NCBI RefSeq assembly: GCF_003018255.1
Contig: NZ_CP027440.1
Reading direction: 5' to 3' (one strand)
DNA length: 64,000 nt
From: Escherichia coli
GTDB taxonomy: Bacteria > Pseudomonadota > Gammaproteobacteria > Enterobacterales > Enterobacteriaceae
The notes beneath the pieces are model-generated. The model saw only the letters and a list, made by a program, of their open reading frames with translations, was not told the origin of the DNA and searched no databases. This document shows, in pieces, positions 1-37,587 of the stretch (position 1 is its first letter; the number at the start of each line of letters is the position of its first letter). Position numbers and translations under genes: made by a program.

Positions 1-159
1 AACGCTGCGTCGAGCAGCTGGCGAACTGGCATAAAGAGCTGGAGGAGTATAAGAACGCCTCCCGGATTGATATTAAACCGTCACGGGAATATGCCAGCAC
101 AATCATGAACGCTATCTGGACTGGCGAGCCGAGTGTGATTTACGGCAACGTCCGTAACG
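1..159 (+). pseudogene. melA: melA alpha-galactosidase (GH4), upstream part of reading frame, interrupted by prophage insertion at ~159/160
   Basis: Frame 3 reads ...NAIWTGEPSVIYGNVRN then V-stop inside prophage end; same frame resumes at 39000 as NDGLIDNLPQG...DWLPGWLHR*. Confidence 0.7.
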
Positions 160-176
160 TATAGCGCGGCGATTTT

Positions 177-242
177 TTTGATACCGATTTGCATTTCATT
201 TGATACCGCTGAAAAACGCCGATACGCAACTTATTTGATACT
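177..242. repeat. Right-end transposase-binding site cluster (three TTTGATAC(C) repeats)
   Basis: tttgataccg at 177-186, ttgataccg at 199-207, tttgatact at 234-242; reverse complements occur at the other prophage end. Confidence 0.6.
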
Positions 243-287
243 AAATCGGCGCTTTTCTTTTGAGTTTTAGAATGAGTTTTTAAGCGC

Positions 288-1025
288 TCATTCACTCTCT
301 TTCAAACCAGTTTTAACTGTTTGTGGTTTTGGGTAAGGCTGGACTTTGAATAGCTTTGTGTTGAGGCGTTTTCTGGCCCTCTTGTTCAGAAACCGGATGT
401 AACGAAACTGTCGGAACTTATGCACACTGGCTCTGTCGATATTAGCCCTCAGATGTTCACCTCGTTGTCCGCCTCGTTTAATGGCACTCCTGCAAATCTC
501 GTGATACCACTCGCCATCAAGTTCATAGAATGTTGATTCATGGCTGCCTACATAATCAAAATTGCTTGCCTGATACACGACACCAAGACAGCCACAACGC
601 TCATCTGCAAACGACTGAACCCACTGTACCTGCGGATAAAGCTGCCTGATTAGCTTGAGCGCGTAACTGATTGCCCTTGATTCGGAGTTTCTCGGCATAC
701 AGTCATGCATCCATAGCCGGTTAAGCTCCATATATTCTCGGTTCTGCGTACCCGTTACGACGCGTGCACCACTGTTTGGGTTAAGGGCGTAACCCCATTG
801 CATTACGCCAACAAGTTCCCGTTCTGAAAATATACCCAGATGAAGGTAGGAATTATTTACGAAACGGTGGCTGTAATGTTTATTGACGATAACCAGTCTG
901 GCCAGCCAGCAACTTATTGTCTCAACCCGCAACTCACGGGAGCCATAACCAACGATATTGTCGTTATAGCGAATAAGTTCAGGCGTGCTGATGATACGGG
1001 ATGTGACTTGCTTTCTGTTCCCCAC
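288..1025 (-). CDS. mom: Mom-like DNA modification protein
   Basis: 245-aa ORF at the Mu right-end position, overlapping the 3' end of com as in Mu; assigned by position and resemblance to Mu Mom from memory. Confidence 0.8.
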
Positions 1026-1179
1026 GACAGGATTTCCTTGTGTATGTGGGGTGCTCTGTGGCGCTCGGAGATGTGATTTGATTGAGGGTTTTACAGCGCG
1101 GACATTTTACTTCCAGATAACTGAAACTGGCCCGTGCCAGTAGCTTATTGCAGTGTCGGCACCGTATGTTTCGATACAT
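979..1179 (-). CDS. com: Com zinc-finger translational activator of mom
   Basis: [14 protein letters not shown]...CPRCK matches Mu Com C4 zinc finger; ATG at 1179 preceded by AGGAGG; track start at 1224 is a TTG extension. Confidence 0.8.
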
Positions 1180-1380
1180 GGCCGCATAACCTCCTGCTTT
1201 GTTGTTGATGCCTTTCTCATGCAATCGATCGACAAAAACGATCGATTCGATTTGTTTAATTGATACAACAAATAGATTTAAAAGTCATCAACAATGATTC
1301 AGGGCGGTGATTATTTACTTAAAGAAACGAAGAGTTAGGTGGTGAAAACGATCATAAAATGATCATTTTATTGACTTTTT
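1180..1380 (-). promoter_or_regulatory. com-mom upstream regulatory region with clustered Dam (GATC) sites
   Basis: GATC at 1227, 1240, 1350 and 1361; palindrome cGATCAtaaaaTGATCa at 1349-1365; Mu Pmom is known to be controlled by Dam methylation of upstream GATC sites. Confidence 0.5.
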
Positions 1381-1585
1381 ATACAGTGAAGGTAGGATCG
1401 CGCGTATATGTAGTATGTTTCAAATCAACAGGATACTACATAAAAGGGAAACCCAGCATAGCTGGAACTATGCTGGGTCAATCTGTAAAAACTTGCATCA
1501 ATGCTTTACTTCGAGCTCGTGGCGTATCCTATGATATTCCCCGGTCTCCTGTAAAGCAGAGATGCATAAAAAGGAGATCTTTATC

Positions 1586-1756
1586 ATGGATAAAGAGCCT
1601 GTTTGCCCTGCCTGTAAGACTCCCTTACAGCTCATCTATCGCCGTTCTCGATCTCAAAATGGCAAGACATACAAACCAAAAAATGCTTCCTGTTTCAGGA
1701 TGCTGATATGTCCTGCCTGTTCTCCCCGGAGGGAAAATACACAAAACGTGCATTAA
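1586..1756 (+). CDS. Small zinc-ribbon protein (CPxC...CPxC), hypothetical
   Basis: 56-aa ORF MDKEPVCPACKTPL...LICPACS with AAGGAG Shine-Dalgarno 8 nt upstream of ATG; opposite strand to the late operon. Confidence 0.5.
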   Translation: MDKEPVCPACKTPLQLIYRRSRSQNGKTYKPKNASCFRMLICPACSPRRENTQNVH

Positions 1757-1794
1757 CAAATTCACCCGGCAGGGAAACCTGCCGGTCGGTATTG

Positions 1795-2040
1795 TTACAT
1801 CATAGTACCGTCAGTTCCGGGTTGAACCGGCTCTGGTTGCTCTACGGGTTGAGGCTCATTTTCCGTGCTGTTTTCAGCCGGAGAACGACCAACCATTCGG
1901 GCCAGCACTTCATCAACATATGCGTCGATTTGTGCCTCAAAATCCTTGCGAACCTGCGCCTTCAGCACGCGGTTCACTTCTTCAGAATAAAGTGCCTGTT
2001 TGACAAGCTCTTCAGTAACCGTGCCTTTAATCTCTGGCAT
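1795..2040 (-). CDS. Hypothetical acidic protein (81 aa), cargo
   Basis: ORF MPEIKGTVTEELVKQ... with Pro/Glu-rich C-terminus; downstream of esterase and small membrane gene on the same strand. Confidence 0.45.
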   Translation of the reverse strand: MPEIKGTVTEELVKQALYSEEVNRVLKAQVRKDFEAQIDAYVDEVLARMVGRSPAENSTENEPQPVEQPEPVQPGTDGTMM

Positions 2041-2075
2041 GAATATTCTCCTTTCCTTTTCTGGTTCACAAAAAA

Positions 2076-2255
2076 TTAAATCTGACCGGAGTCTTTCGGC
2101 TGCGGCATTACAGCACCGCTTTTTATCTTTTCCTCGGCAGCTGCATCAATTTTATTTCGAAAATAATTGCGAATAATTTTATAACCACCGCTGACAAGCA
2201 ACAGACAACAAACCACCGTGCAGAAATACAGCAGGCAGACGTTTATATATGTCAT
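2076..2255 (-). CDS. Small membrane protein (59 aa), hypothetical
   Basis: Hand translation MTYINVCLLYFCTVVCCLLLVSGGYKIIRNYFRNK...; N-terminal hydrophobic helix, GAGG SD upstream; below the 60-aa cutoff of the ORF track. Confidence 0.45.
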   Translation of the reverse strand: MTYINVCLLYFCTVVCCLLLVSGGYKIIRNYFRNKIDAAAEEKIKSGAVMPQPKDSGQI

Positions 2256-2312
2256 ATAAGCCTCACTCTTATTAACTGATGTTACAGCCGGATAAATTCC
2301 CGGCCGTCACGA

Positions 2313-4361
2313 TTATGCCGCAGGGGTATTAACCTCAAGGACAACGCTCTCAAAAGACACGCCATAAGTTGCCCCTTTGGTGACATCTGTCAGTGTCAGC
2401 GTATCTTTGGCAGGGGAAAGTGCATCTTTCACCATCTGGAATGCCTGGCCCGGAGTGCCATCCAGCACAGGCGTTACCTGGGCACTTCCCGCCGTAAACT
2501 TCAGGACAAGTGTATGCCACTGGTTATTGTAGGCTCCAAATGATCCCAGTTTCGTATTCCCCCCTGTTTTATGGTGCATCAGATTTAACTGGCCGCCTGT
2601 TGTCTGGAGATAATACGCCATCAGGAACGGTGTGCCTGTACCACTCATGGTTACACCTTCCGGGACCGTATCGGTGTGGAGGTAAATACCCAGAGCAAAC
2701 TGGCCTTCTTTTACTTCACCTGACAGACGGAATTTACAGGTCAACTGACCACCATGCTTCAGAAGTTCACCGGCTGCATCAGTTCCATGGGTAAGCGTCC
2801 AGGTTTTTCCGCTTTGTTTGGATACGGTCAACGCTTTACCTTCGTCCGTCAGCTGGATTGTACCATCTGTAATTTTCCAGCCCTGAGCCGGGGCTTCTCC
2901 TGCTGATGCTTTAAGTGAAAGCAGCGTACGGAGTGACGGGGATGTCGGATGGGGGGACTCACTGCCTCCTGGCTGACTACCTGTCGGCGCTTCCGGTTTC
3001 CCACCCGGCGCGGGCTGAGGCAGGGCTTCACCATCAGGGGCCACACCGGCAATAAATGCAGAGGTCAGACCTGCATATTTAAGAATTGCTGATGCAAAAC
3101 GATCTGAGACCAGAAAACGGCGCGCCCAGGAGCTAAAATGGGTTGCCCTGGATGCTGTTGTCCAGTTGCCATCTCCCCGTGATTCCGCACCATAATACCC
3201 GGCAGAAGCGATATCCGGGTCGTGCTCCGGCAGGTTGGTCGCGGTTTTATTACCGAACTCATCGTGCATCAGTGGAACAAAGTGAATGTTCTCGGAAGCC
3301 CGGTTTTTATATCCGCTATAAATGGTTTCATATGCCGCCGGGTTCTTCTCTTTCCAGTCATAGGTTGTGTCACCACATAACCACGGCACACTGTCTGATG
3401 AACCACCAATACACTGACCGGAGAAAGCACCAAGATCCGCACGGAATTTTTTCACCATCGCAGTAAACTGGGCACCATGCTGGGCCGGGGTCGCTTTAAG
3501 GTCTCCTTCCCCCTGAATCCATACGACAGATAACAGCACATTCTTTGGATTCGCCTCAAGTGCCGCTTTAGTTCGACTGACAAGATCCTGATACAGTGGG
3601 GTATCCACTCCCCAGCGTAGTGACGCCTCGGCTGCACCACTTGCCGGATCGAATGAGCCAACTGCGCCGGTTGTAAAAGCAGAGCCGCCACGGGCACAGG
3701 GAACCAGTAAAATCCCGGCATCAGCAGGAATCACCGGTAATACTTTTTTCGCAATATGAAGTCCCTGCCCCACACAACCATACTGCCCTTTTTTCAGGTC
3801 TGCTTTTGGATGGTTCAGCAGACTCATATTCTGAACATCATGAAGGCAGTGATCTGCTGGAATGATTTCATTGTATTTGCAGGGAATACCTCCGGGGGTT
3901 TGTGTATTCCTGCGTGCCAGCTGCATAATACGTGGATCAGGACGATCATAAGAATCCGGAAGGGGCAACCCTTCACCATAAGATGAAGCATTGGACTGGC
4001 CGGCTATAACAATCACGTAATACCAGGAAGGGGAGCTGGAAGCAGTTTCATTTCCTGACGGACGGGTATGTGTTTCAGCATTATCCCAGTCTGACGGTTC
4101 AGCAGTACCGGCAACATCAGCACTTAACGGAATGACCGCACCAATACCCGCTCCGGTAATTTCCACACTCGGATCACCGGATACTGGCCTTACCCACAGG
4201 CAATCCCGTGTATTAAAACTGATGAGACAGTCAGCAAATGTCATTCCTCCTTTTGTTTCGGCCGGAGGAAAGGGAGCCTCAAGAAATGCCGCTGTACCAC
4301 CGGAAACTTTAACAGTAAAGTTTCCGGGCATTGATGATAGTTGAACCCATTTGGACGTCAT
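2313..4361 (-). CDS. SGNH/SASA-family esterase (sialate O-acetylesterase-like) with Pro-rich linker and C-terminal beta-sandwich lectin-like domain; NanS-p-like
   Basis: 682 aa; GQSN nucleophile motif (VIAGQSNASSYG), WIQGEGD block, PQPAPGGKPEAPTGSQPGG linker, Gly/Thr-rich C-terminal domain. Confidence 0.55.
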   Translation of the reverse strand: MTSKWVQLSSMPGNFTVKVSGGTAAFLEAPFPPAETKGGMTFADCLISFNTRDCLWVRPVSGDPSVEITGAGIGAVIPLSADVAGTAEPSDWDNAETHTRPSGNETASSSPSWYYVIVIAGQSNASSYGEGLPLPDSYDRPDPRIMQLARRNTQTPGGIPCKYNEIIPADHCLHDVQNMSLLNHPKADLKKGQYGCVGQGLHIAKKVLPVIPADAGILLVPCARGGSAFTTGAVGSFDPASGAAEASLRWGVDTPLYQDLVSRTKAALEANPKNVLLSVVWIQGEGDLKATPAQHGAQFTAMVKKFRADLGAFSGQCIGGSSDSVPWLCGDTTYDWKEKNPAAYETIYSGYKNRASENIHFVPLMHDEFGNKTATNLPEHDPDIASAGYYGAESRGDGNWTTASRATHFSSWARRFLVSDRFASAILKYAGLTSAFIAGVAPDGEALPQPAPGGKPEAPTGSQPGGSESPHPTSPSLRTLLSLKASAGEAPAQGWKITDGTIQLTDEGKALTVSKQSGKTWTLTHGTDAAGELLKHGGQLTCKFRLSGEVKEGQFALGIYLHTDTVPEGVTMSGTGTPFLMAYYLQTTGGQLNLMHHKTGGNTKLGSFGAYNNQWHTLVLKFTAGSAQVTPVLDGTPGQAFQMVKDALSPAKDTLTLTDVTKGATYGVSFESVVLEVNTPAA

Positions 4362-4460
4362 AATAATCAGCCTGTTCCTGAATAAACTGAATTATCATAT
4401 CCACAGACCGATAAACGCCATTTTGCGTTAATTCAGTAAAGGCCCAACAAAGAGAGCGTC

Positions 4461-5021
4461 TTATTTTTCCGAAACGCTCGCAGGATAATAACGATAAAGG
4501 GTTGAAAGACCGATATCAAAAATAAGTGCCACCTGTCTTCGACTGACACCCCCGGCCAGTAAACGCCCGACCTGCTCGTATTGTTCCTGCGTGAGACGGC
4601 GGGGTCTGCCGCCGGTTCGTCCCCTTTCACGGGCAGCTGCAAGACCAGCCCGTGTCCGTTCGACAATTAATTCACGCTCCATTTCTGCCAGCGCACCCAT
4701 TATGTGAAAAAAGAAACGCCCCATGGGGGTTGACGTATCAATGTTGTCAGTAAGACTACGAAAATTTATCCCCTGTTGCTGTAATTCATCTGTCAGCGCA
4801 ACAAGGTGGCGCATACTGCGCCCCAGCCTGTCCAGTTTCCAGACCATCAGTGTGTCACCGGGTTTTAGTTTCTTCAGTGCCCGCTTCAGTCCCGGCCGCT
4901 GTGTCGTTTTACCACTCATTTTGTCTTCAAAAATCTGCTCACATCCTGCACATTCCAGCGCATTTCTTTGTAAACCGGTGTTCTGGTCATTTGTTGATAC
5001 GCGTATATAGCCAATCAGCAT
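4461..5021 (-). CDS. gin: Gin/Hin/Pin-family serine DNA invertase
   Basis: MLIGYIRVSTNDQNTGLQRNAL...GRFFFHIMGALAEMEREL closely matches Mu Gin. Confidence 0.95.
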   Translation of the reverse strand: MLIGYIRVSTNDQNTGLQRNALECAGCEQIFEDKMSGKTTQRPGLKRALKKLKPGDTLMVWKLDRLGRSMRHLVALTDELQQQGINFRSLTDNIDTSTPMGRFFFHIMGALAEMERELIVERTRAGLAAARERGRTGGRPRRLTQEQYEQVGRLLAGGVSRRQVALIFDIGLSTLYRYYPASVSEK

Positions 5022-5075
5022 GTATTTACCTTCCTTAAAAAGAGGTGAAAATGCCTTTTAAAACAGATATACGGT

Positions 5076-5101
5076 ATCCCTGAAAACCTCGGTTTACGGG
5101 A
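5076..5101. other. gix-like recombination site (gin-proximal)
   Basis: tccctgaaaacc-tc-ggtttacgggaa resembles Mu gix (TTATCCAAAACCTCGGTTTACAGGAA); 28-bp perfect inverted match with 6437-6464. Confidence 0.7.
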
Positions 5102-5471
5102 AACGGTAAATAAGGCTGCTGATGCCCTGCCATCGGGTGGAACCGCCGTGGCAGCAAACAGACTCGCCACCCCAAGAAATATTAATGGCGTTCCTTTTGA
5201 CGGAACGCAGGATATCAACATCACGTCAGGAATGACGCAGTCAACCGCAGATGGCCGGTATGTACAGAATGTTCAGCTTGGAGCACAGAGCTATCATTCA
5301 CCCGGAGGCAATGAAATATCATGGAATTACAGCGCACCTTCCGGTTGTATGCTTTCCGGTATTAACGTGCAGGAAACCGGCTCCCGGTCTGCGGACAATA
5401 TCGGTGGGGTCTATTATCGCCCGGTTCAGATTTATATTAATAATGCCTGGAGAACGGTAAGTTCAGTGTAA
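5091..5471 (+). CDS. Alternative tail-fibre C-terminal segment (Sv'), promoterless, expressed only after inversion
   Basis: Plus-strand frame GLRETVNKAADALPSGGTAVAANRLATPRNINGVPFDGTQDINITSGMTQS... parallels the C-terminus of the tail fibre on the minus strand. Confidence 0.65.
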   Translation, partial: GLRETVNKAADALPSGGTAVAANRLATPRNINGVPFDGTQDINITSGMTQSTADGRYVQNVQLGAQSYHSPGGNEISWNYSAPSGCMLSGINVQETGSRSADNIGGVYYRPVQIYINNAWRTVSSV

Positions 5472-5505
5472 ACCACAGAAAAGGGTGCTGAATGCACCCT
5501 CTGAA

Positions 5506-6138
5506 TTATTCCGGTTTTTCCGGCCAGGGAATCGCCTGGTAATGCCCCTCACTGGCAATATCATTAAAGTGCATTTCTTTAAGCTGTCGGATATACGCCA
5601 TCCAGCGCGTCAGCTGTAATTTATTTTCATCGCTAATCATGTCCAGTTTTAATTCTGTTTTCCAGTCATCCACGGTTTCGTTGGCTTCCTGGAGCAGCGA
5701 TGAGCGACGCTTTTCAGCAACCGTCTTCCAGTTTACCGGCACCTTTGATATCAGGCCATCAGAAAACTGCCAGTTACCGTCAATATTCACACCTTCCGGC
5801 AGTTCGTCCACTTCAACAACAGTAAAACCTGCCGGATATAAAGCAGAGACATCTTCAGCAACAGAGCAGATAATACCCGTTACAGGCGAAATACAGAGTT
5901 TGTATTTCTTTGTGAAAAGCGGGATAGATTCATAAAAATCCCTTCCGTCCTCACTCTGGAAATACTGAACATCCTCACCATAGGGTTTGTGTTCCGGGTA
6001 ATATCGTTTTACGTTAATAAGCTCCATTATTTCACCTTGTTTTTGTTGAAAAGACAAAATCATCATATATTTATTCAGATAATCTGTTTTTTGAACTACT
6101 GCACTTTTATGCGCTGGAAGCTGTTTTCCACGAACCAT
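5506..6138 (-). CDS. Tail fibre assembly chaperone (U/Tfa-like)
   Basis: 210-aa ORF immediately downstream of the tail-fibre variable part, inside the invertible segment. Confidence 0.7.
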   Translation of the reverse strand: MVRGKQLPAHKSAVVQKTDYLNKYMMILSFQQKQGEIMELINVKRYYPEHKPYGEDVQYFQSEDGRDFYESIPLFTKKYKLCISPVTGIICSVAEDVSALYPAGFTVVEVDELPEGVNIDGNWQFSDGLISKVPVNWKTVAEKRRSSLLQEANETVDDWKTELKLDMISDENKLQLTRWMAYIRQLKEMHFNDIASEGHYQAIPWPEKPE

Positions 6139-6994
6139 CTATCAGAAACTGAACAGGTCGATAATATGCGGTTACCGTTGCATTACCATCACCAGCGACA
6201 TCAAGCCCTGTAAGTACGCATCCGTCAGGAACTTCAAAAATATTATATTGCATTCCAATCGTTGACCTTGAACCTCTTCGAATGCTTTGAACATAACGTG
6301 AGTCAGCCACAGACTGCGTCATCCCCGATGTAATATTTATATCCTGCGTTCCGTCAAATGGGACACCATTAATATTTCTTGGAGTGGCGAGTTTATTCGC
6401 TGCAACAGCCGTTCCGTTCGATGGCAGGGCATTCGCCGCCTTATTTACCGTTTCCCGTAAACCGACGTTATCGATAAAAGCGCCTTTATCCGGAATGTCT
6501 GCGCCGTTCTGCTCCCTGCGCAGGTAACGGTTATCACCTTCGCTTTTGCTGTAAACATCCAGATTATTACGGGCGGTTCCCGCATTCTCCAGGTCGGCAA
6601 GGTTCTGATCCTTCGCCAGAGCATTAACGTCACCGGGACCAAGACTGTTTTTTGTGGCAAGCGCCCCAAGACCAAGATAACCACGGGCAAGACGCTGGGC
6701 TTCCGCACCGGCATCAGCAATTTCTTTCAGGTTGTTTTTCCGGGAAAAGGCATTCGCAGCGATAATGGCTTTAATGGACAGCGTAAGCTGGTTTAACTGC
6801 GCCTTATCCGGCTGAATACTGGCTTCAGCCAGAATATTCAGCAGTTCGGCCTGGAGAATATTCAGCCAGTCCTGACCAATCCAGCTGATACCTTTTTGTC
6901 CGTCACCTTCGGTAAACCAGGTGGTGGTATTACTCTGCGCCGGTGCCAGCGCAGGCATATTCGCCACGCCGGAATTATTATCAACATGAAACAT
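6107..6994 (-). CDS. Tail fibre protein S (constant N-terminal part plus invertible C-terminal part)
   Basis: 295 aa; C-terminal ~115 aa lie within the invertible segment; crossover falls at IDNVGLRETVNK. Confidence 0.75.
   Translation of the reverse strand: MFHVDNNSGVANMPALAPAQSNTTTWFTEGDGQKGISWIGQDWLNILQAELLNILAEASIQPDKAQLNQLTLSIKAIIAANAFSRKNNLKEIADAGAEAQRLARGYLGLGALATKNSLGPGDVNALAKDQNLADLENAGTARNNLDVYSKSEGDNRYLRREQNGADIPDKGAFIDNVGLRETVNKAANALPSNGTAVAANKLATPRNINGVPFDGTQDINITSGMTQSVADSRYVQSIRRGSRSTIGMQYNIFEVPDGCVLTGLDVAGDGNATVTAYYRPVQFLIDGSWKTASSA
6451..6475. other. gix-like recombination site (inside tail fibre gene)
   Basis: ttcccgtaaacc-ga-cgttatcgata; inverted partner of 5076-5101. Confidence 0.7.
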
Positions 6995-7554
6995 TAAATA
7001 GTCTCCTCTTCATGGCTGTTTGCATACACGTAAATAAACGTCTGCCATGCAGGCTTATAACGGTTCAGAATACATTCCAGCGCACCGCCTTCATAAATAC
7101 GCAGCGGCGTGAGAATATCATCCAGCACATTCATATTCCGGTAGCCGGTTTCACTGTTAATCGTGACAATACTGACCCACTGTGAATCCGGTGATGGCTG
7201 AATATCTATTTCATAACCAAACTCTGCCGCAAACCGGATATAAAATTCACGGTTAAGAGAGGGTTTCATCCGGTATTTATTCCCGGCATAACGCTGACGC
7301 TCCTGAATGGTTGCGCCGGTCATATCACATTCCGGTAACCCCAGATAACGCTCCCAGTCTTCCAGCAGCAGACGGGATGAATCAGGAAAACGTTCTGCCA
7401 GCATCTGGTTACCGGTCCAGGAAACACGCTCCGTGGAATGACTGAGGCCCAGGCACAAAGCCGCAAGAACGGATGACGGCCGCTTATCCCATGCCAGCCC
7501 GTCAGGCAGCAACTGCAACAGGGCACGCTGATGCGGGGTCAGGGTTACAGCCAT
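6994..7554 (-). CDS. Tail/baseplate protein (Mu gp48-like)
   Basis: Position between baseplate J-like gene and tail fibre. Confidence 0.6.
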   Translation of the reverse strand: MAVTLTPHQRALLQLLPDGLAWDKRPSSVLAALCLGLSHSTERVSWTGNQMLAERFPDSSRLLLEDWERYLGLPECDMTGATIQERQRYAGNKYRMKPSLNREFYIRFAAEFGYEIDIQPSPDSQWVSIVTINSETGYRNMNVLDDILTPLRIYEGGALECILNRYKPAWQTFIYVYANSHEEETI

Positions 7555-8630
7555 GTGATTTCCCCCACGGTCAGCAACTCTGTATCTCCGGCCATCACGG
7601 ACTTCAGCGGGCTGCGAACTTCAAAATCCTCCAGTCCTTTCACCCCTGCAACAGCCCGCCAGAATGATGAAGGCAATACAAGTCCACCCGGCCGCGATTC
7701 GTTATAAAGCAGGTCCGTTAATGCCTGTTTTACGGCAGCCTGATTTTCCGGCGTTTTGGGTACAATCCTGATCTCAAACGCCACCGGCTTATTGGTCAGC
7801 TTAAACACGCTGATTGTCGGCCCAAGTGGCTGACCAACGGGCTGGCCCGTCGCCGGATCATCATGACTGCGGATATAATCCGCCACCCGCTTCACATCAC
7901 CTTCTCCGGGGAAAATGTCAGGGTTATTATCCTGAACAAAAGTCACACCAACACTACCCGCCTCAGGCCATTCAGGCTTACACCATGCCCGCGTCACGCC
8001 CGGTACTTCCCGTGCCCAGCGTTCAAAATCATACTGTGTTCCCCCTGATGGCGGGTTCTGTACCCGGAATACCAGCCTGGACAGCAACTCCGGCACCGTT
8101 TCCACATCCGCACCACCGGTGAGTCCCGTGCCGGTGACCGTGGCTGTCTGGTTGATGCCCGCCTGTGGCGTGATAAAGGACAGGCGGGTTCCGGTCGGGG
8201 TATTTCCAGCGCGCCCCGCACTTTCCGCCTCCACATTAACATTCAGTGTTCCGGCTTTTCCGGTCGCAGAGCCGGTGATGCGGTACACAACACCATCGCT
8301 TCGCTGAAGGAGTACGCCTTCCGTGATCCCTGCATCCGTGGTCAGCATCAGTTGTACCGGTCCGTCAGCGCGGGAAGCCGGTTTACGGATGACACCCCAG
8401 AATGCGCAGTGTTTCAGGAGTTCGGCTTCATCAGCTTCTGTCGGAATTATCTGCCGGGAGATCCAGGCCAGATGTTCATGCTCCTGTGCTGACAGACCCG
8501 CCAGTGCATACGCAATGGCATTCAGGGTGGTTTCATTCACGCCCGGCTGCGAACCGGGCAGGCGCTGGCTGATATCCTGTTGTGTCTGTGTGATCAGTTG
8601 CGCCAGTGGTAAGGGCTGATAAGGCATCAT
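7545..8630 (-). CDS. Baseplate J-like protein (Mu gp47-like)
   Basis: 361 aa, position and size. Confidence 0.7.
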   Translation of the reverse strand: MMPYQPLPLAQLITQTQQDISQRLPGSQPGVNETTLNAIAYALAGLSAQEHEHLAWISRQIIPTEADEAELLKHCAFWGVIRKPASRADGPVQLMLTTDAGITEGVLLQRSDGVVYRITGSATGKAGTLNVNVEAESAGRAGNTPTGTRLSFITPQAGINQTATVTGTGLTGGADVETVPELLSRLVFRVQNPPSGGTQYDFERWAREVPGVTRAWCKPEWPEAGSVGVTFVQDNNPDIFPGEGDVKRVADYIRSHDDPATGQPVGQPLGPTISVFKLTNKPVAFEIRIVPKTPENQAAVKQALTDLLYNESRPGGLVLPSSFWRAVAGVKGLEDFEVRSPLKSVMAGDTELLTVGEITWL

Positions 8631-9064
8631 TCCCCCTTCATATCAGCATAAAAAATCATCGGATGTCTGCTTCCGTCCGGCAGGGTGATTTTCACGGAAA
8701 GCGAAAGGCGAGCATGCCCCACACGCATGGCATGGCATACCACGGATGTGGCAGCACCGCTTTTATGCAGCCACGCCAGCGCTTCATCAGCATAGGCCTG
8801 TGCACGGCTGACCACGGAGGACAGCGTCTTTTCACGGCTTAACAGCCAGAGACGGGAGCCAACGGGGCGCTCCCGGAAACTGTCTCCCCACCATCCCCGA
8901 CGGTCACGGGTGCCGTCAGGGATTTCATCGGAATCCAGCGCCCGCCTGTCCGTAAACAGTGAAATAATGACCGCAGTCAGCAGGCTGTTATCCGTCAGAA
9001 GATCTGCGCCGTTCAGTTGCAGGGAACCGCAACCCTGATCCCAGACGACAGCAATATCAGCCAT
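8627..9064 (-). CDS. Baseplate protein (Mu gp46-like)
   Basis: Likely start MADIAVVWDQ at 9064 (track ORF 8627-9277 is an upstream extension overlapping the previous gene). Confidence 0.6.
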   Translation of the reverse strand: MADIAVVWDQGCGSLQLNGADLLTDNSLLTAVIISLFTDRRALDSDEIPDGTRDRRGWWGDSFRERPVGSRLWLLSREKTLSSVVSRAQAYADEALAWLHKSGAATSVVCHAMRVGHARLSLSVKITLPDGSRHPMIFYADMKGE

Positions 9065-9671
9065 TCTCTGGTCCTCCCGTTTTGCTGCCTTCACCGTTAT
9101 CGTGATGCACATGACCTGAATAGGTGATCCCGGCAATAACCGCTTCGGACATCGTGAACGTCCCCTGTGATCTTCCGGTGCCGTCAATGGACACATTGCC
9201 TTTGACATGCAGGTTCTTATCCACTGTGACATTACCGGTAAAGTGAGCCTCCGGTGTATCCACCTGAACACCTTCATCGGCGTAAATCTCCAGCGTCTTA
9301 CAGGTCACAATGATCCGGCCGTTCTTTGTCAGACGTATACGGTGCCCCTCATGGTGATACACGCCGGTATCTCCGGCGGTAAGTCCGGTCGGGCGACTGC
9401 GGCGGTCTTCCACCACAAGCACCACGGCCTGATCCCGTTGTCCGCCAGCACAGGCCAGAAAAACTTCCGCACCAGGCAGGGGGACGCTGATTTGCCCGTA
9501 CTGCTGGGGGCGTTCAACGTCATCAAAGGTTTCACCATCCATACCGGTGATTTGCACATTCTGGATTTTTAGCGTGTCCGTTGTGCCGGTCAGTACACCA
9601 CGCCCGAACAGCAGACGAACACCCCGCATTACGGGGGCCAGAAGGCGGCTGATGACTTCGTCATTCATCAT
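9057..9671 (-). CDS. Baseplate spike/assembly protein (Mu gp45-like, gpV-like)
   Basis: 204 aa, position. Confidence 0.65.
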   Translation of the reverse strand: MMNDEVISRLLAPVMRGVRLLFGRGVLTGTTDTLKIQNVQITGMDGETFDDVERPQQYGQISVPLPGAEVFLACAGGQRDQAVVLVVEDRRSRPTGLTAGDTGVYHHEGHRIRLTKNGRIIVTCKTLEIYADEGVQVDTPEAHFTGNVTVDKNLHVKGNVSIDGTGRSQGTFTMSEAVIAGITYSGHVHHDNGEGSKTGGPENG

Positions 9672-10785
9672 TGAATTTAATCCCCTGTTTTTTCATCTGT
9701 GCCCGCACGAAGGCGTCCACGTCACCCGCATTTCCGCTTCCGCTGTTTCCCGGCTCTGCCGGAACAATAAAGCCGTCACGGGGTGCCAGAATCAGACGGG
9801 TGGTTTCGCCGTGATTTGCATCCAGCGAAAACTCCACCTGACAGACAAGAAGATCACGCTCTTCCACTCCGGTGCGGGGAGCCGTGACAGCCGTCAGCAG
9901 GTTGATATCCCACAACTGGCCGTTCTCCCGAAACCAGTGCCGCACGGTGGCTGTCAGGCGCACAGAGCGGGCAACCGCCCGGCGCATTTCTCGGACAGCC
10001 CTCTGGCGTGCACCGTCTGCATCAACAGCATGATCCGCCAGCACAATTTTCGGTCTGTAACGGTGGATGGCACTGTCTGTCACCGTACCAACGGGTGCGG
10101 CCAGCGTTCCGGCTGTCAGTGCATCCCCGGCATGACCACCACCACGCCCGTGCCCCCGTACACGGTATTCACTGTGGCGCAGACGGTGATCCACGTTGTG
10201 ATCCAAATCCAGCAGATTTTCGCCCAGCGTCAGCGTGTCGCCACGCTGACTGCCGGCCTGAGTGAAAACCAGTTCACCGGCGGCATTACTGGTTACCAGG
10301 ACGCCTCTGTGTCTCGCGGCCCGTGTCAGCGCATCTGCCACGGTTTCTGAGTTTTCCAGTGTGAAGGTGGAAAAGGGCCGGGCTGCCGTTGCATCATTTA
10401 CCTGCCAGCGCACCGTGACCCCGAACGGAGCACACAAATCTGAAGCAATGTGCTCCAGCGTGCGGTTCCTCCACTGGCTGCCCGGATGAATGGCTGAACA
10501 GTCCACCAGGTCACCGGTTTTATCCCGTCCGCTGAGCGTGATCTGAAAACGCGTGGCGCTGATGCGCTGCCGGACCTGATCCAGCCAGCCAGTGATCACA
10601 GGCTGACCGTCAATGCGCAATTCCAGAGACTGACCGGCACGGACGGATGACGGAAGGCGTACACCGGGCATCATTACCCCCAGTTCAAAGGAGCCCGCCA
10701 GATGTTCAAGAGAGCGACGAACACTCACCGTCAGCCAGCCGGAAAAAATCTCACCGCCCAGATACAGTTCAACCCTGCTGCTCAC
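9661..10785 (-). CDS. Baseplate hub protein (Mu P/gp44-like)
   Basis: 374 aa, position after N-like gene. Confidence 0.7.
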   Translation of the reverse strand: MSSRVELYLGGEIFSGWLTVSVRRSLEHLAGSFELGVMMPGVRLPSSVRAGQSLELRIDGQPVITGWLDQVRQRISATRFQITLSGRDKTGDLVDCSAIHPGSQWRNRTLEHIASDLCAPFGVTVRWQVNDATAARPFSTFTLENSETVADALTRAARHRGVLVTSNAAGELVFTQAGSQRGDTLTLGENLLDLDHNVDHRLRHSEYRVRGHGRGGGHAGDALTAGTLAAPVGTVTDSAIHRYRPKIVLADHAVDADGARQRAVREMRRAVARSVRLTATVRHWFRENGQLWDINLLTAVTAPRTGVEERDLLVCQVEFSLDANHGETTRLILAPRDGFIVPAEPGNSGSGNAGDVDAFVRAQMKKQGIKFNDE

Positions 10786-12139
10786 TAATCACCTCCACTG
10801 AATGGCCTCCGGGAATGAACAGCGGATCAACAATACCGTTACGGCGCACAAAACGTTGCCAGCCGGTACTGTTCCCGGTGGCACGGTACAGGGTCACCAG
10901 TGCAGGCTCGGTGGTACGTACAGTCACTACTGTTGCACCGGGTAGCTGAACTCCCCGTGTATTCAGATCCTCTGTCAGTGCCAGTCTGGCATCACGAAGC
11001 GTCAGCGCCGTGGCGGTATACCCCTGCCCGGACAGTGTCATCACCTGCCGTTCGAGCGCTTCGCTTAAGTCACGGTTAATGCGCTGAAGATCAACTGAAC
11101 TTTCCAGCCAGACAGGCCAGGTACGGTGGGCTGCGTCACTGTCCGGCAGGGTTTCCTGACTGAGAACCTGATCCAGCAGTTTTCCCACGGTCTGTGCCTG
11201 GGCCACCACGGCAGCACTCTGCATTACCGCCCGTATCAGACGAATATTCTTTTGTGCTGCCGGTGTCAGACCGATGAGAGTCTGCGGATTATCCTGCTCA
11301 TCCAGCACGTAACGCAGGGAAGATAATGTCCTGTACAGTTGCGGCATTCCCTGAGAGACGGCGGATGTCGTCCGGCCGATACTGCCACCGGGCCGGGTAT
11401 TCAGGCCTCCTGAAGACAGTGACGGCAGCGATGGCAGGGTGATCAGGGCACTGAAAAGCCCCGCAAAAGATGAGGCCATGCGGGAAGGTGCTGTCAGTAA
11501 TGCCGTGGCATTCCCTTTCAGCGCCGTGAACGTGGCAGTAAAGGCACTGATATCCTGTACAATCCCCATGCCGGAAACGGCATTTTCCAGGGCGGACACC
11601 TTATCGCTGATGGTTTCGGTCATTGCCTGGACATCGTGCATTCCGTCAGAAATCACCGTCCAGCCCGCTTCCAGGGTTTCAAAAACCTTCCCGAGCGCGG
11701 TGGTACTCTTCTGCTCCAGAATGGCGGCCGTGTCCTGTGTGACAGCAGGTGCGGTATCATCACTTACCGGCGTGACATTAATGGTGAACTCAACCACGCC
11801 CTGTTCAGCAGCGTTATAACGACTTTCAAAGCTGTTTATCAGCACATTTAACGTGCCGTAATCCGGGTGAAGCAGCTCCCCGGCACCGGGAGCACGAAGG
11901 GCATCACGCAGACGATTTCGCTGTGTCTGAACATCATCCCCCATCACAAGTACACTGAACGTAAATTCAGCCAGTTTAGGTCCCAGATCGTCTGCACCAC
12001 CGGTTTCCCGTAACGGATATTCCCGACGGACAATGTTTCGCCCGCCACGTTCGCGCTGCTCACGCCAGACGAGGAACGGCACACCACGGAACGCACCACG
12101 ACCGTCACCAGAGGCCATAATTCCCTCCGTTCCAGACAT
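10769..12139 (-). CDS. DNA circularisation protein N-like (Mu gp43)
   Basis: 456 aa between tape measure and baseplate hub. Confidence 0.7.
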   Translation of the reverse strand: MSGTEGIMASGDGRGAFRGVPFLVWREQRERGGRNIVRREYPLRETGGADDLGPKLAEFTFSVLVMGDDVQTQRNRLRDALRAPGAGELLHPDYGTLNVLINSFESRYNAAEQGVVEFTINVTPVSDDTAPAVTQDTAAILEQKSTTALGKVFETLEAGWTVISDGMHDVQAMTETISDKVSALENAVSGMGIVQDISAFTATFTALKGNATALLTAPSRMASSFAGLFSALITLPSLPSLSSGGLNTRPGGSIGRTTSAVSQGMPQLYRTLSSLRYVLDEQDNPQTLIGLTPAAQKNIRLIRAVMQSAAVVAQAQTVGKLLDQVLSQETLPDSDAAHRTWPVWLESSVDLQRINRDLSEALERQVMTLSGQGYTATALTLRDARLALTEDLNTRGVQLPGATVVTVRTTEPALVTLYRATGNSTGWQRFVRRNGIVDPLFIPGGHSVEVISEQQG

Positions 12140-35496: not shown

Positions 35497-37587
35497 TCAG
35501 GCCAGCGGGTCATTTTCTTTTAATTTCGCTTCCAGCAACTGCAATCCCCGCTGGAAATTACGCTCGTATTCTTCATCAGGTTCATCGTCAGCGACCGGTT
35601 GCTGAACGGTCACCGTATTACCCACAGGGCGGTATATGTTTTCCAGCCAGGGCTCCTGCGGCTTGTGCTCCAGCACGTTGACAACCTCATCCTCGGCATC
35701 ACGGATTTTTTCCTCTGCGCGTTTACGCATGCCTTTAAGGCGTTGCTGCTGTTTGTAGTATTCCGCGCTAACCGGGAAGGCTTCGCGTTTATTACCGTCC
35801 CATACCGCCTCGCAAATCACGCTGCCATCCAGGCGACGTACGGTAATTCGTTCGGCATCATGAATGTCATAGCTGATAAGCACCTTACGACCATGCTCGT
35901 CACGCAGCTCGGGCGCGTAGTAAATATTATTCAGCCAGCGTATTTCACAGCGTCTTACAGGGCGTTCCACCATCGGCCGGAACATATCCCGCAGCTCAAC
36001 ATCGGACAGCCATTCAATTTCCGTGTCCTCTTCCGCCAGGCGTTTTTTTCTGAACTCCGCCGGGCTGTAATGCTTGCCGTTCGGCTTCACCGGTAATTCA
36101 TCGTGCGGCCGGTTGTTGTACCACTCAACACCGTCACGAATGGCATCAATCAGTTCAGACCAGGACGGTAAATCACGCATCGCTGACTGCTGCCGGGCGT
36201 TCAGCCGTTTGCCCTGTTGCAGGGCAGTAAATGCCGAGCGTAAATCGCGGTTGGTTTTGCGTAACGTCTCGCGATCTGCACCTTTCCCGAAATAGGTGCG
36301 GTATTTACGGGCTATGCGCATCGGTAATGTGCGGTTAAGCCGTTCGATAATGCCTCGTCCCTGCGGATTACCGGCAATCCCGGTCGGGTGATTAATCCCC
36401 AGTCGCGGCAGTATCCCCACAACCTCCTTATCCAGGATGTCGGCGGTTTCCCCGGAGCCGTTATCCGAGTAATACAGAAACGGTTTGCCGTGATGGCGAA
36501 TGCCGTGCTGTATGGCACCGGCTACGGCGAAAACATTTTCAGCCAGGTCAAGGCTCCAGCCCACCACAAAGCGCGTGCCACCGTCGATAACAAAGGTCAC
36601 TTCCGGTGCAAATGGCCGACCGTGAACCGGGTGTGCGCATTTCAGCTTCATGCCGTGACCGTCACCAATCCAGACATAATTCACCGGCATTCTGGACCAG
36701 TCGCGGCGCGTGAATCCCTCAAGCTGGCGGTATTCACTGCCGGTCACCCGGCCTTTTTGTTTCACCACTTCCGGCAGTTTCTTCATTGCGCGGCGAATGG
36801 TGTCATAAGACGGCATGATATCGAGCATATAAGGCTCATCAGCGTGCCGGTGCTGCCATTCAGCGACAAAATCCTCGTAAGCCTCGGTCATTGGTCGGCC
36901 GTTTGACTGGCGATACTGCGCCAGAAATTCGGGCAGCCAGTTAATATCTTCAGCTTTTATTTCCTGGCGCTTACCCGGTGCCAGTAAAAGCAGGCGTTCA
37001 GCGGCGTTCTGCGCCTTGTTAAAGGCCGCAATCCAGCGTTTCAGCGTTATTTCACTCAACGCACGGCTGTTTCCCTTTTTGGCGTTCGCCGTCTCAACCA
37101 TTGCCACAATGCGCTCGTCCAGTTGCGAACGTGCCAGGTTGTCAACGATAAACCGGATAGCTTTCGCACAGCTGAAACCGGGTTGTTGCGCGACTTTCAT
37201 CACTTCGCTGACGATCGCAATTCGTGCATCAGCCACCTGGCGCTGGTTTTCAGTCAGGGCATTAAGGCGTTCAACCATCAGTTGTGGTGATCCGCGATAT
37301 GCCTCCACCGCATCAACCACGGCAGGCGAGCGTCTGGCCTTTGTCACCACCGGAGCCGGTGATTCATCAGCTTTTTGCGTCATCAGTTGAAGGGCATAAC
37401 GTTCACGCAATACTTGTTGCGCGCCAGAAGGCAAACAATCGATATTAAATTCGATTGCTTTTGTCCCCTTACGTTTGCGTAACATGGCTGCATTTCCCGC
37501 AGCTGCTTTTGTGAGTCGATGGCGAATGTTATGTTCCATCATTGGTAAATCAGGAAGACCAACACATTCTTTTGCTGTTACCCACAT
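35497..37587 (-). CDS. DDE transposase A (MuA-like)
   Basis: 696 aa, N-terminal MWVTAKECVGLPDLP resembles MuA. Confidence 0.9.
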   Translation of the reverse strand: MWVTAKECVGLPDLPMMEHNIRHRLTKAAAGNAAMLRKRKGTKAIEFNIDCLPSGAQQVLRERYALQLMTQKADESPAPVVTKARRSPAVVDAVEAYRGSPQLMVERLNALTENQRQVADARIAIVSEVMKVAQQPGFSCAKAIRFIVDNLARSQLDERIVAMVETANAKKGNSRALSEITLKRWIAAFNKAQNAAERLLLLAPGKRQEIKAEDINWLPEFLAQYRQSNGRPMTEAYEDFVAEWQHRHADEPYMLDIMPSYDTIRRAMKKLPEVVKQKGRVTGSEYRQLEGFTRRDWSRMPVNYVWIGDGHGMKLKCAHPVHGRPFAPEVTFVIDGGTRFVVGWSLDLAENVFAVAGAIQHGIRHHGKPFLYYSDNGSGETADILDKEVVGILPRLGINHPTGIAGNPQGRGIIERLNRTLPMRIARKYRTYFGKGADRETLRKTNRDLRSAFTALQQGKRLNARQQSAMRDLPSWSELIDAIRDGVEWYNNRPHDELPVKPNGKHYSPAEFRKKRLAEEDTEIEWLSDVELRDMFRPMVERPVRRCEIRWLNNIYYAPELRDEHGRKVLISYDIHDAERITVRRLDGSVICEAVWDGNKREAFPVSAEYYKQQQRLKGMRKRAEEKIRDAEDEVVNVLEHKPQEPWLENIYRPVGNTVTVQQPVADDEPDEEYERNFQRGLQLLEAKLKENDPLA

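Follow-up and report, generated by a model that had tools for sequence, protein, structure and literature searches.

The sialate O-acetylesterases closest to the one described here are the NanS-p proteins of lambdoid Shiga toxin (Stx) phages, among them those of 933W (Z1466/ST933Wp42) and phi24B (vb_24B_21, also named gp84, PDB entry 6YP6). Lambdoid NanS-p enzymes cleave Neu5,9Ac2 and the O-acetyl groups of mucin, and support growth (review PMC8065619). In phi24B, gp84 is an abundant virion protein; its N-terminal DUF1737 domain, described as a helix plus three strands, forms a hexamer in the central capsid hexons, and the esterase part is later cleaved off (preprint 10.64898/2026.04.10.717836). 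In lambdoid Stx phages nanS-p is followed by genes for DUF1378 and DUF826 proteins, an arrangement noted by Pascal et al. 2023 (PMC10462455). The transposable phage Mu (AF083977) has no such genes at its right end, where gin ends at 35673, com starts at 35768, and the 94 bp between them hold only the mom promoter, Pmom. Here we analyse a Mu-like prophage in a 64,000-nucleotide stretch of an Escherichia coli genome (assembly GCF_003018255.1, contig NZ_CP027440.1; hereafter the window), in which a block of genes including a large esterase gene lies between gin and com. We consider it highly probable that this block is a portable nanS-p module, homologous to the module of lambdoid Stx phages and in the same gene order, that is fixed in one prophage lineage between the tail-fibre/gin region and com-mom and has the role of a sialate 9-O-acetylesterase.

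A nanS-p module between gin and com-mom

The Mu-like prophage lies in reverse orientation in the window, with its right end at about position 160. On the minus strand the order is gin, an open reading frame (ORF) of 682 amino acids (aa), a 59-aa ORF, an 81-aa ORF, com and mom. The original prediction, made from the sequence alone, listed these three ORFs and a 64-aa ORF facing them as a block that is absent from canonical Mu. All four are indeed present between gin and com/mom, and the gap that measures 94 bp in Mu is about 3.2 kb here, with intact genes. When the block was compared with a phage collection by megablast, only two records matched, both of them Mu-like insertions inside Stx prophage records, which places canonical Mu among the phages without the block. 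The flank order gin, com, mom and the GATC-rich control DNA upstream of com are common to Mu and the window prophage, whereas the canonical Mu right end, with gin followed immediately by Pmom-com-mom, is not found in the window. The three minus-strand ORFs of the block are real genes rather than chance ORFs, since the large ORF has hundreds of homologues, both small ORFs match Pfam families, and the ratio of nonsynonymous to synonymous substitution (dN/dS) in the small genes is about 0.1-0.5. None of the NCBIfam models matched the four block proteins, and a search of window positions 1-5500 against Rfam found nothing at an expect value (E) of 0.1 or less.

The 682-aa ORF (2313..4361, minus strand) encodes a protein of 71.9 kDa with an isoelectric point (pI) of 5.95, which by its sequence is a NanS-p-family sialate O-acetylesterase. 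It matches phrog_143 (E 2e-273) and carries the Pfam domains SASA and DUF6645. The original prediction had recognised an SGNH/SASA esterase with GQSN and WIQGEGD motifs, a Pro-rich linker and a C-terminal lectin-like beta-sandwich, and had likened it to NanS-p; the profile and structure searches it proposed bear out each of these points, and also place both small ORFs in Pfam. GQSN occupies residues 121-124, WIQGEGD residues 281-287, and the Pro-rich linker residues ~431-477.

The SGNH/SASA catalytic domain, delimited by alignment to chromosomal E. coli NanS (PDB 3PT5), spans residues 112-430 (3072..4028, minus strand). Residues 104-429 match NanS with E 3e-110 (phmmer), the Pfam SASA match has E 7.5e-13, and in a Foldseek search with the AlphaFold model the catalytic fold matched 3PT5 with E 8e-30 and a TM-score (TMt) of 0.82. 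The SGNH blocks are present, namely the GQSN serine, the block II glycine, QGExD and the block V histidine, and S123, N124, G225, Q283/E285/D287 and H408 are invariant across 16-17 homologues (alignment A1). The full-length AlphaFold2 (AF2) model, built on a 17-sequence alignment, is good in the C-terminal domain and of medium quality overall, with a predicted local distance difference test score (pLDDT) of 69; catalytic geometry was therefore judged by sequence alignment to 3PT5. NanS itself (YjhS, 9-O-acetyl-N-acetylneuraminate esterase) aligns end to end with the catalytic domain at 54% identity in the structural alignment, but it is a single-domain protein of ~326-337 aa belonging to the nan regulon, and lacks the N-terminal domain, the lectin domain and the DUF1378/DUF826 partners.

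The catalytic domain is followed by a second, Pro-rich linker (residues 431-477; 2931..3071, minus strand), for which AF2 gives pLDDT below 50 at residues 439-475, and then by a C-terminal lectin-like jelly-roll domain, DUF6645 (residues 478-682; 2316..2930, minus strand). Sequence similarity to the C-terminal domain of phi24B NanS-p (6YP6) spans residues 478-679 (E 1e-41), the Pfam DUF6645 match has E 2e-25, and the two folds agree with TMt 0.88 and a root-mean-square deviation of 1.9 Å. Foldseek next ranks sialic-acid-binding and L-type lectins, among them the domain of Vibrio cholerae sialidase that binds sialic acid. In phi24B NanS-p, carbohydrate binding has been proposed for the four aromatic residues Y510, Y515, Y540 and F611, which correspond to F555, Y560, Y584 and P650 here (window ~2410-2700). 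This domain is the most divergent part of the protein among alleles (32-57% identity), which hints at a diversified glycan specificity. A 752-aa homologue, P0116, has precomputed Pfam matches to DUF1737, SASA, a phage tail-collar domain (PF07484) and DUF6645; this architecture suggests that further domain insertions may have occurred in the esterase family.

The two small genes lie downstream on the same strand. The first (2076..2255) encodes a 59-aa single-pass membrane protein of family DUF1378 (PF07125, E 1e-23; phrog_494), with one strong transmembrane helix at residues 4-22 (Kyte-Doolittle 2.46). The second (1795..2040) encodes an 81-aa protein of family DUF826 (PF05696, E 3e-15; phrog_311) with a pI of 4.37. 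The original prediction was right that one is a membrane protein and the other acidic, and wrong that they are unexplained by a NanS-p relationship, as DUF1378 and DUF826 are the standard genes after nanS-p in lambdoid Stx phages. DUF1378 homologues lie directly downstream of nanS-p in 309 phage records. The lambdoid phage TL-2011c has the order stxAB, esterase, DUF1378, DUF826, holin, lysozyme, and in PhiR5_1 DUF826 likewise comes after DUF1378, both following nanS-p. In comparisons of divergent copies from both backbones, dN/dS was 0.13-0.39 for the DUF1378 gene and 0.1-0.5 for the DUF826 gene; both are maintained coding genes under purifying selection. Because this pair also stands in this order after nanS-p, upstream of holin S, in lambdoid Stx phages, the esterase, DUF1378 and DUF826 genes are one portable module that occurs in two unrelated phage backbones. 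That the trio is kept together in both backbones argues for a functional link between its members.

The resemblance to lambdoid NanS-p extends over most of the protein: the SASA/SGNH catalytic domains are 65-68% identical, both proteins have a Pro-rich linker and a DUF6645 jelly-roll domain (40-57% identical, fold TM-score 0.88), and a signal peptide is absent from both. No signal peptide, hydrophobic N-terminus or membrane segment was found in the window esterase. The two differ in their setting, the lambdoid gene lying in a lambdoid backbone between stx/Q and holin S, whereas the gene described here lies in a transposable Mu-like myovirus between gin and com-mom, apart from the lysis genes. 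No holin or endolysin gene is adjacent to it, and the lambdoid late-region placement is not seen. They differ also in the N-terminus, which is DUF1737 in the lambdoid protein and an unrelated, predicted all-beta domain of ~70 residues with a longer linker in the window enzyme.

The position of the module was then compared among Mu-like prophages. Among 5,426 complete E. coli genomes, 42 have the exact block. A further ~170 match it in part, and in all such records listed the annotated genes stand in the same order and the esterase allele is divergent; a longer query matched the region in about 290 of the 5,426 genomes at 80% identity or more. Many of these ~290 are O157:H7, O111 or O103 strains, and the matching genomes are largely STEC (E. 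coli strains that make Shiga toxin), bovine or human gut isolates. In all seven annotated loci that were opened (L001, L002, L007, L008, L009, L010 and L012), the module stands at the same place, and these include prophages without gin and alleles that are just 47% identical. A scan of IMG/VR with the N-terminal domain returned 34 loci, with gin or Mu gp48 upstream in each locus that reaches that far. DUF1378 and DUF826 follow in all 29 loci that have a downstream flank; com comes next in 26 of the 29, and mom is present in most.

The block is thus a fixed feature of a lineage of Sp18-like Mu-like prophages in E. coli and Shigella. It is not the variable cargo that the original prediction supposed, as it stands at the same position in all 7 annotated and all 34 IMG/VR loci. 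That prediction had also named, as a finding that would refute it, the same block at the same position with an assigned function in Mu-like phages. This was found in part, in that the position is conserved and members of the esterase's cluster already carry the NCBI name 'sialate O-acetylesterase'. Sp18, the Mu-like prophage of O157:H7 strain Sakai, is predicted to be intact (PMC2669165). Many of the block matches are O157:H7, the serotype of Sakai, although Sakai itself was not confirmed among them.

The N-terminal domain

The N-terminal ~110 aa had been singled out by the original prediction as the part that a NanS-p relationship leaves unexplained, and this view stands. No Pfam family, DUF1737 (PF08410) included, matches within residues 1-115, and the identity to DUF1737 N-termini is 16-17%. 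The domain comprises residues 1-95 (4077..4361, minus strand) with a predicted all-beta core at residues 1-70. It is joined to the catalytic domain by a flexible linker rich in Ser, Thr, Pro and Gly (residues 96-111; 4029..4076, minus strand) that ends in ...ASSSPS. Residues 70-109 have pLDDT below 50 in the AF2 model, and this linker varies in length and sequence in alignment A1, while residues 1-70 modelled alone consist entirely of strands with pLDDT 78-90. Homologues of the esterase fall into two classes, those with DUF1737, which align over ~84% of the query, and those without it, which align over 98-100%. Residues 1-95 are conserved in the class without DUF1737, for example at W5, G13, V17, V19, G21-G22, F26, L55-W56 and G62. 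From the alignments and models, the Mu-lineage enzyme carries an unrelated all-beta domain of ~70 residues, with its linker, exactly where the DUF1737 capsid anchor would stand. This swap is the sole unusual feature of the module relative to the lambdoid enzyme.

The conservation of the domain also bears on the start of the gene. PGAP places the start codon at Met11, giving 672 aa, whereas the ATG at 4361 gives 682 aa, the intervening stretch being window 4332-4361. W5 and L8, which lie upstream of Met11, are kept in divergent homologues, including P0008 at 24% identity, and are modelled as part of a beta-strand. The conservation of these two residues favours the ATG at 4361 as the better candidate start.

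The domain has few relatives. HMMER, run exhaustively over 1.84 billion representative proteins, returned five matches. Four of the five are fragments of the same esterase family: P0004 and P0008 continue into SASA, and two are short N-terminal pieces. The fifth, the 1445-aa repeat protein P0005, aligned only with the linker-like residues 53-103; it was judged compositional and rejected. A Mu-like prophage is also the setting of P0008, a distant copy (24% identity in alignment A1). A word-indexed search for homologues returned near-identical fragments only, and no stand-alone paralogue was found elsewhere in the window by tblastn or a profile hidden Markov model. Foldseek searches against PDB and BFVD gave nothing at E ≤ 0.001. 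The weak fold matches, all at E ≥ 3.6e-3, were to cupin-like proteins and uncharacterised phage proteins of ~90 aa; the cupin-like resemblance was noted and not used.

The type of N-terminal domain follows the phage rather than the enzyme. The all-beta domain was found in Mu-like contexts only, and N-terminal type co-varies with phage backbone in 41 of 41 contexts inspected. Compared with the window allele, Sakai-type alleles are 100% identical in the N-terminal domain, 67% identical in the catalytic domain and 40% identical in the C-terminal domain, and the closest C-terminal domain (57% identity) belongs to a lambdoid allele. Judged from these identities, Mu-like and lambdoid alleles have exchanged catalytic and C-terminal domains.

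Flanking genes, recombinant loci and expression signals

The flanks of the module are recognisably those of Mu. The gin-type DNA invertase gene (4461-5021, minus strand) matches phrog_125 (E 6e-95) and is 73% identical in nucleotide sequence to Mu gin. The com and mom genes (288..1224, minus strand; com 979-1179/1224, mom 288-1025) match phrog_13819/6417 and phrog_1384, and mom is 71% identical to Mu mom at the nucleotide level. In L001 (LC727881.1), a Mu-like insertion in an Stx2c prophage that is otherwise collinear, com is followed at 2774-3826 by a gene for a 350-aa protein resembling C5 DNA cytosine methyltransferases, and mom is absent; H164 is likewise annotated 'DNA cytosine methyltransferase'. 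The DNA-modification gene under com control thus appears to be exchangeable. In E. coli 107 (NZ_CP028695; L002 4295-5017), which has the identical block, the prophage interrupts a major facilitator superfamily transporter gene beside eamA and marRAB. The other Mu-like copies inspected lie elsewhere in the chromosome, close to ves/spy, the elf fimbrial genes or citF, which is what transposition of the phage would lead one to expect.

A hybrid structure was seen in the locus L038 (IMGVR_UViG_2617270962_000005, 1-11853), and also in L025. In L038, Mu-like baseplate and tail genes and a Mu-type esterase extend to ~5800. After this point come lambdoid DUF1378, DUF826, holin, lysozyme and Rz genes, 86-94% identical in nucleotide sequence to TL-2011c, and at 10828-11853 lie Mu com and mom in inverted orientation. 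Such a structure would arise if the nanS-p module of a lambdoid prophage recombined homologously with that of a nearby Mu-like prophage of opposite orientation, causing an inversion. The module therefore acts as a substrate for recombination between prophages that are unrelated.

True variability in the region is confined to the short slot between DUF826 and com (window 1250-1795; L007 4251-4913; L008 3370-3832; L012 7020-7738), which holds different orphan ORFs in different lineages. In the window it contains the 64-aa ORF that faces the module (1562..1756, plus strand). The original prediction had listed it as a convergent zinc-ribbon gene of the block. The ORF with its CPAC...CPAC motif is there, and translation probably begins at the ATG at 1586 (56 aa), behind an AAGGAG Shine-Dalgarno sequence; a GC hairpin follows the stop codon. 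As a member of the block it does not hold up, being an orphan in the variable slot that falls within a frameshifted pseudogene, 1294-1756, in RefSeq/PGAP. It has no significant match in Pfam, PHROGs or PADLOC, and its homologues among 5.8 billion proteins are only copies at 95% identity or more. We treat it as an orphan or doubtful gene. In several genomes PGAP places a truncated or frameshifted 'hypothetical protein' pseudogene from the same ATG (window 1294). Elsewhere the slot contains an unrelated 66-aa ORF (MDKNKKQPDTKG...) or an 86-aa ORF (MIENAEIYNDYF...), and none of the slot ORFs matched PHROGs or PADLOC.

Two hairpins lie on the com side of the module. One, a GC-rich hairpin at 1766..1785 (CCGGCAGG-GAAA-CCTGCCGG), is located between the convergent DUF826 gene and zinc-ribbon ORF, and folds with -18.3 kcal/mol on the plus strand and -17.1 on the minus strand. 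The other, found by a terminator scan at 1450..1479 on the minus strand, resembles an intrinsic terminator, with a 13-bp stem followed by TTTCCCTTTTAT and a folding energy of -21.5 kcal/mol. It is on the module strand, past DUF826 and ahead of the GATC-rich DNA that precedes com, and probably ends the module transcript before the com-mom control region; it would in this way insulate the tightly controlled com-mom operon from transcription of the module. A palindrome at 1223..1247 (AATCGATCGACAAAAACGATCGATT), with GATC at 1227 and 1240, lies ~45-65 nt upstream of the com start, and three more GATC sites follow further upstream at 1350, 1361 and 1396. At the equivalent place Mu has CGATCG...GATCGATT. 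By analogy, the palindrome probably serves the mom promoter as a control region of Dam/OxyR type, similar to the Dam-methylation/OxyR control region of Mu Pmom and more compact; the block has its edge here.

On the other side of the module, the gap between gin and the esterase gene is 99 bp and contains no terminator, so the simplest model of expression would be read-through from gin or the late tail operon. The Mu C-protein box, TTAT-N6-ATAA, is absent from the prophage, a result that is uninformative about late-promoter control in so diverged a phage.

Possible roles of the esterase and their significance

The reading that best fits these observations is that of a nanS-p module at a fixed place in Mu-like prophages. 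As the esterase has no signal peptide, it would be made in the cytoplasm, probably by the read-through just described, and would meet its substrate only at cell lysis or when carried on the virion. The lectin-like domain would target it to sialoglycans, and the SGNH domain would then remove 9-O-acetyl groups from Neu5,9Ac2 on mucin, making the de-acetylated sialic acid usable by the surviving lysogen population. The esterase may also help virions move through mucus or stick to it. At lower confidence, the exchange of DUF1737 for the all-beta domain may fit the esterase to a Mu-type virion.

Several points weigh against this account. Esterase activity on Neu5,9Ac2 and mucin has been shown for lambdoid alleles only, and for the Mu lineage we infer both activity and expression. 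One of the four proposed carbohydrate-binding aromatics of phi24B NanS-p is a proline in the window allele (P650), and therefore the ligand specificity may differ. A scan upstream of the esterase gene found sigma-70 promoter-like sites no more frequently than in shuffled sequence, so that no promoter was assigned. No role has been assigned to DUF1378 or DUF826 in any phage, and in the literature searched no paper links NanS-p with Mu-like phages.

The esterase may be purely a metabolic accessory: lysis of a subpopulation would free the enzyme, sibling lysogens would gain 9-O-acetylated sialic acid, and the N-terminal domain would have no part in the virion, although it might serve solubility, oligomerisation or regulation. 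We put the chance of this at somewhat under one half. The function has been demonstrated experimentally for lambdoid NanS-p alleles, the missing signal peptide is consistent with release by lysis, and the gut and STEC origin of most matching genomes fits a benefit of this kind. However, this explanation gives no reason for the presence in every Mu-lineage allele of a folded N-terminal domain whose conservation extends to a homologue with 24% identity (P0008), or for the purifying selection that has kept DUF1378 and DUF826.

A second explanation is display of the esterase on the particle. The N-terminal domain may dock it on the capsid or tail of the Mu-type virion, with mucus or the bacterial surface as its target, a refinement of the nanS-p reading rather than a replacement for it. 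The domain stands at the exact position of DUF1737, which in phi24B forms capsid-bound hexamers; a disordered linker follows it; it co-varies with the backbone in all 41 contexts while the catalytic and C-terminal domains shuffle; and the gene lies at the end of the tail/late region. Against this, the fold matches are weak and lead to cupin-like and uncharacterised small phage proteins, and the modelled domain is all-beta whereas DUF1737 is a helix plus three strands, so that the likeness to the phi24B capsid decoration protein is positional only. Moreover, the all-beta domain is never found stand-alone or fused to other cargo, as DUF1737 mostly is, and homologous recombination could by itself also produce the partition by backbone, since the N-terminal domains and their upstream flanks share no homology. 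An anchoring role of the domain, and with it display on the virion, is therefore put forward tentatively, on circumstantial support, as less likely than not. A fuller version, in which the domain is an unrecognised virion-docking module displaying a mucin-directed esterase on a Mu-type myovirus, and DUF1378 and DUF826 are helpers for assembly, processing or release, we regard as doubtful; such a helper role would explain why the trio travels together between unrelated backbones.

SGNH tailspike deacetylases, such as G7C gp63.1, are virion-borne. By comparison with these, the esterase might de-O-acetylate a sialic-acid-containing O-antigen or capsule, and in this way aid adsorption or block superinfection. 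Like them, it is an SGNH esterase encoded beside host-range genes, directly after the tail-fibre/invertible segment, that could act from the particle; reviews have raised the possibility for NanS-p, and the homologue P0116 has a tail-collar domain. No tailspike or trimerisation domain and no tail-attachment motif was detected in the window enzyme, however, and its catalytic domain, of the NanS/SASA clade, is 54-68% identical to enzymes with demonstrated specificity for Neu5,9Ac2. Most of the listed host serotypes (O157, O111 and O103) are also not known to have sialylated O-antigens. Receptor modification is accordingly improbable. Defence or anti-defence cargo, also proposed originally, has in its favour the typical accessory-gene location near the genome end beside the anti-restriction gene mom and the orphan ORFs of the variable slot, but it was dropped as very improbable, as six proteins were run against PADLOC without a match, the homology of the three conserved genes clearly lies outside defence, and the orphan ORFs match nothing.

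The nanS-p module itself is known already; what is new is its variant N-terminal architecture and its home in Mu-like genomes. Tallies and studies of NanS-p esterases have so far treated them as fitness factors that belong to the lambdoid Stx prophages of enterohaemorrhagic E. coli. The Mu-like prophages add a further, architecturally distinct class of nanS-p alleles that belongs in nanS-p tallies and knockouts, and their contribution to the pool of nanS-p genes in pathogenic E. coli has gone unrecognised. Unrelated prophages also have in the module a shared region of homology, which, from the hybrid locus L038, evidently mediates recombination between them. With DUF1737 reported as a capsid anchor, the swap of N-terminal domains offers a natural test of virion display and of whether anchor and capsid types are matched. 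If the docking and helper roles are true, phages of different types could acquire the display of a glycan esterase as a modular, transplantable trait whose anchors are interchangeable.

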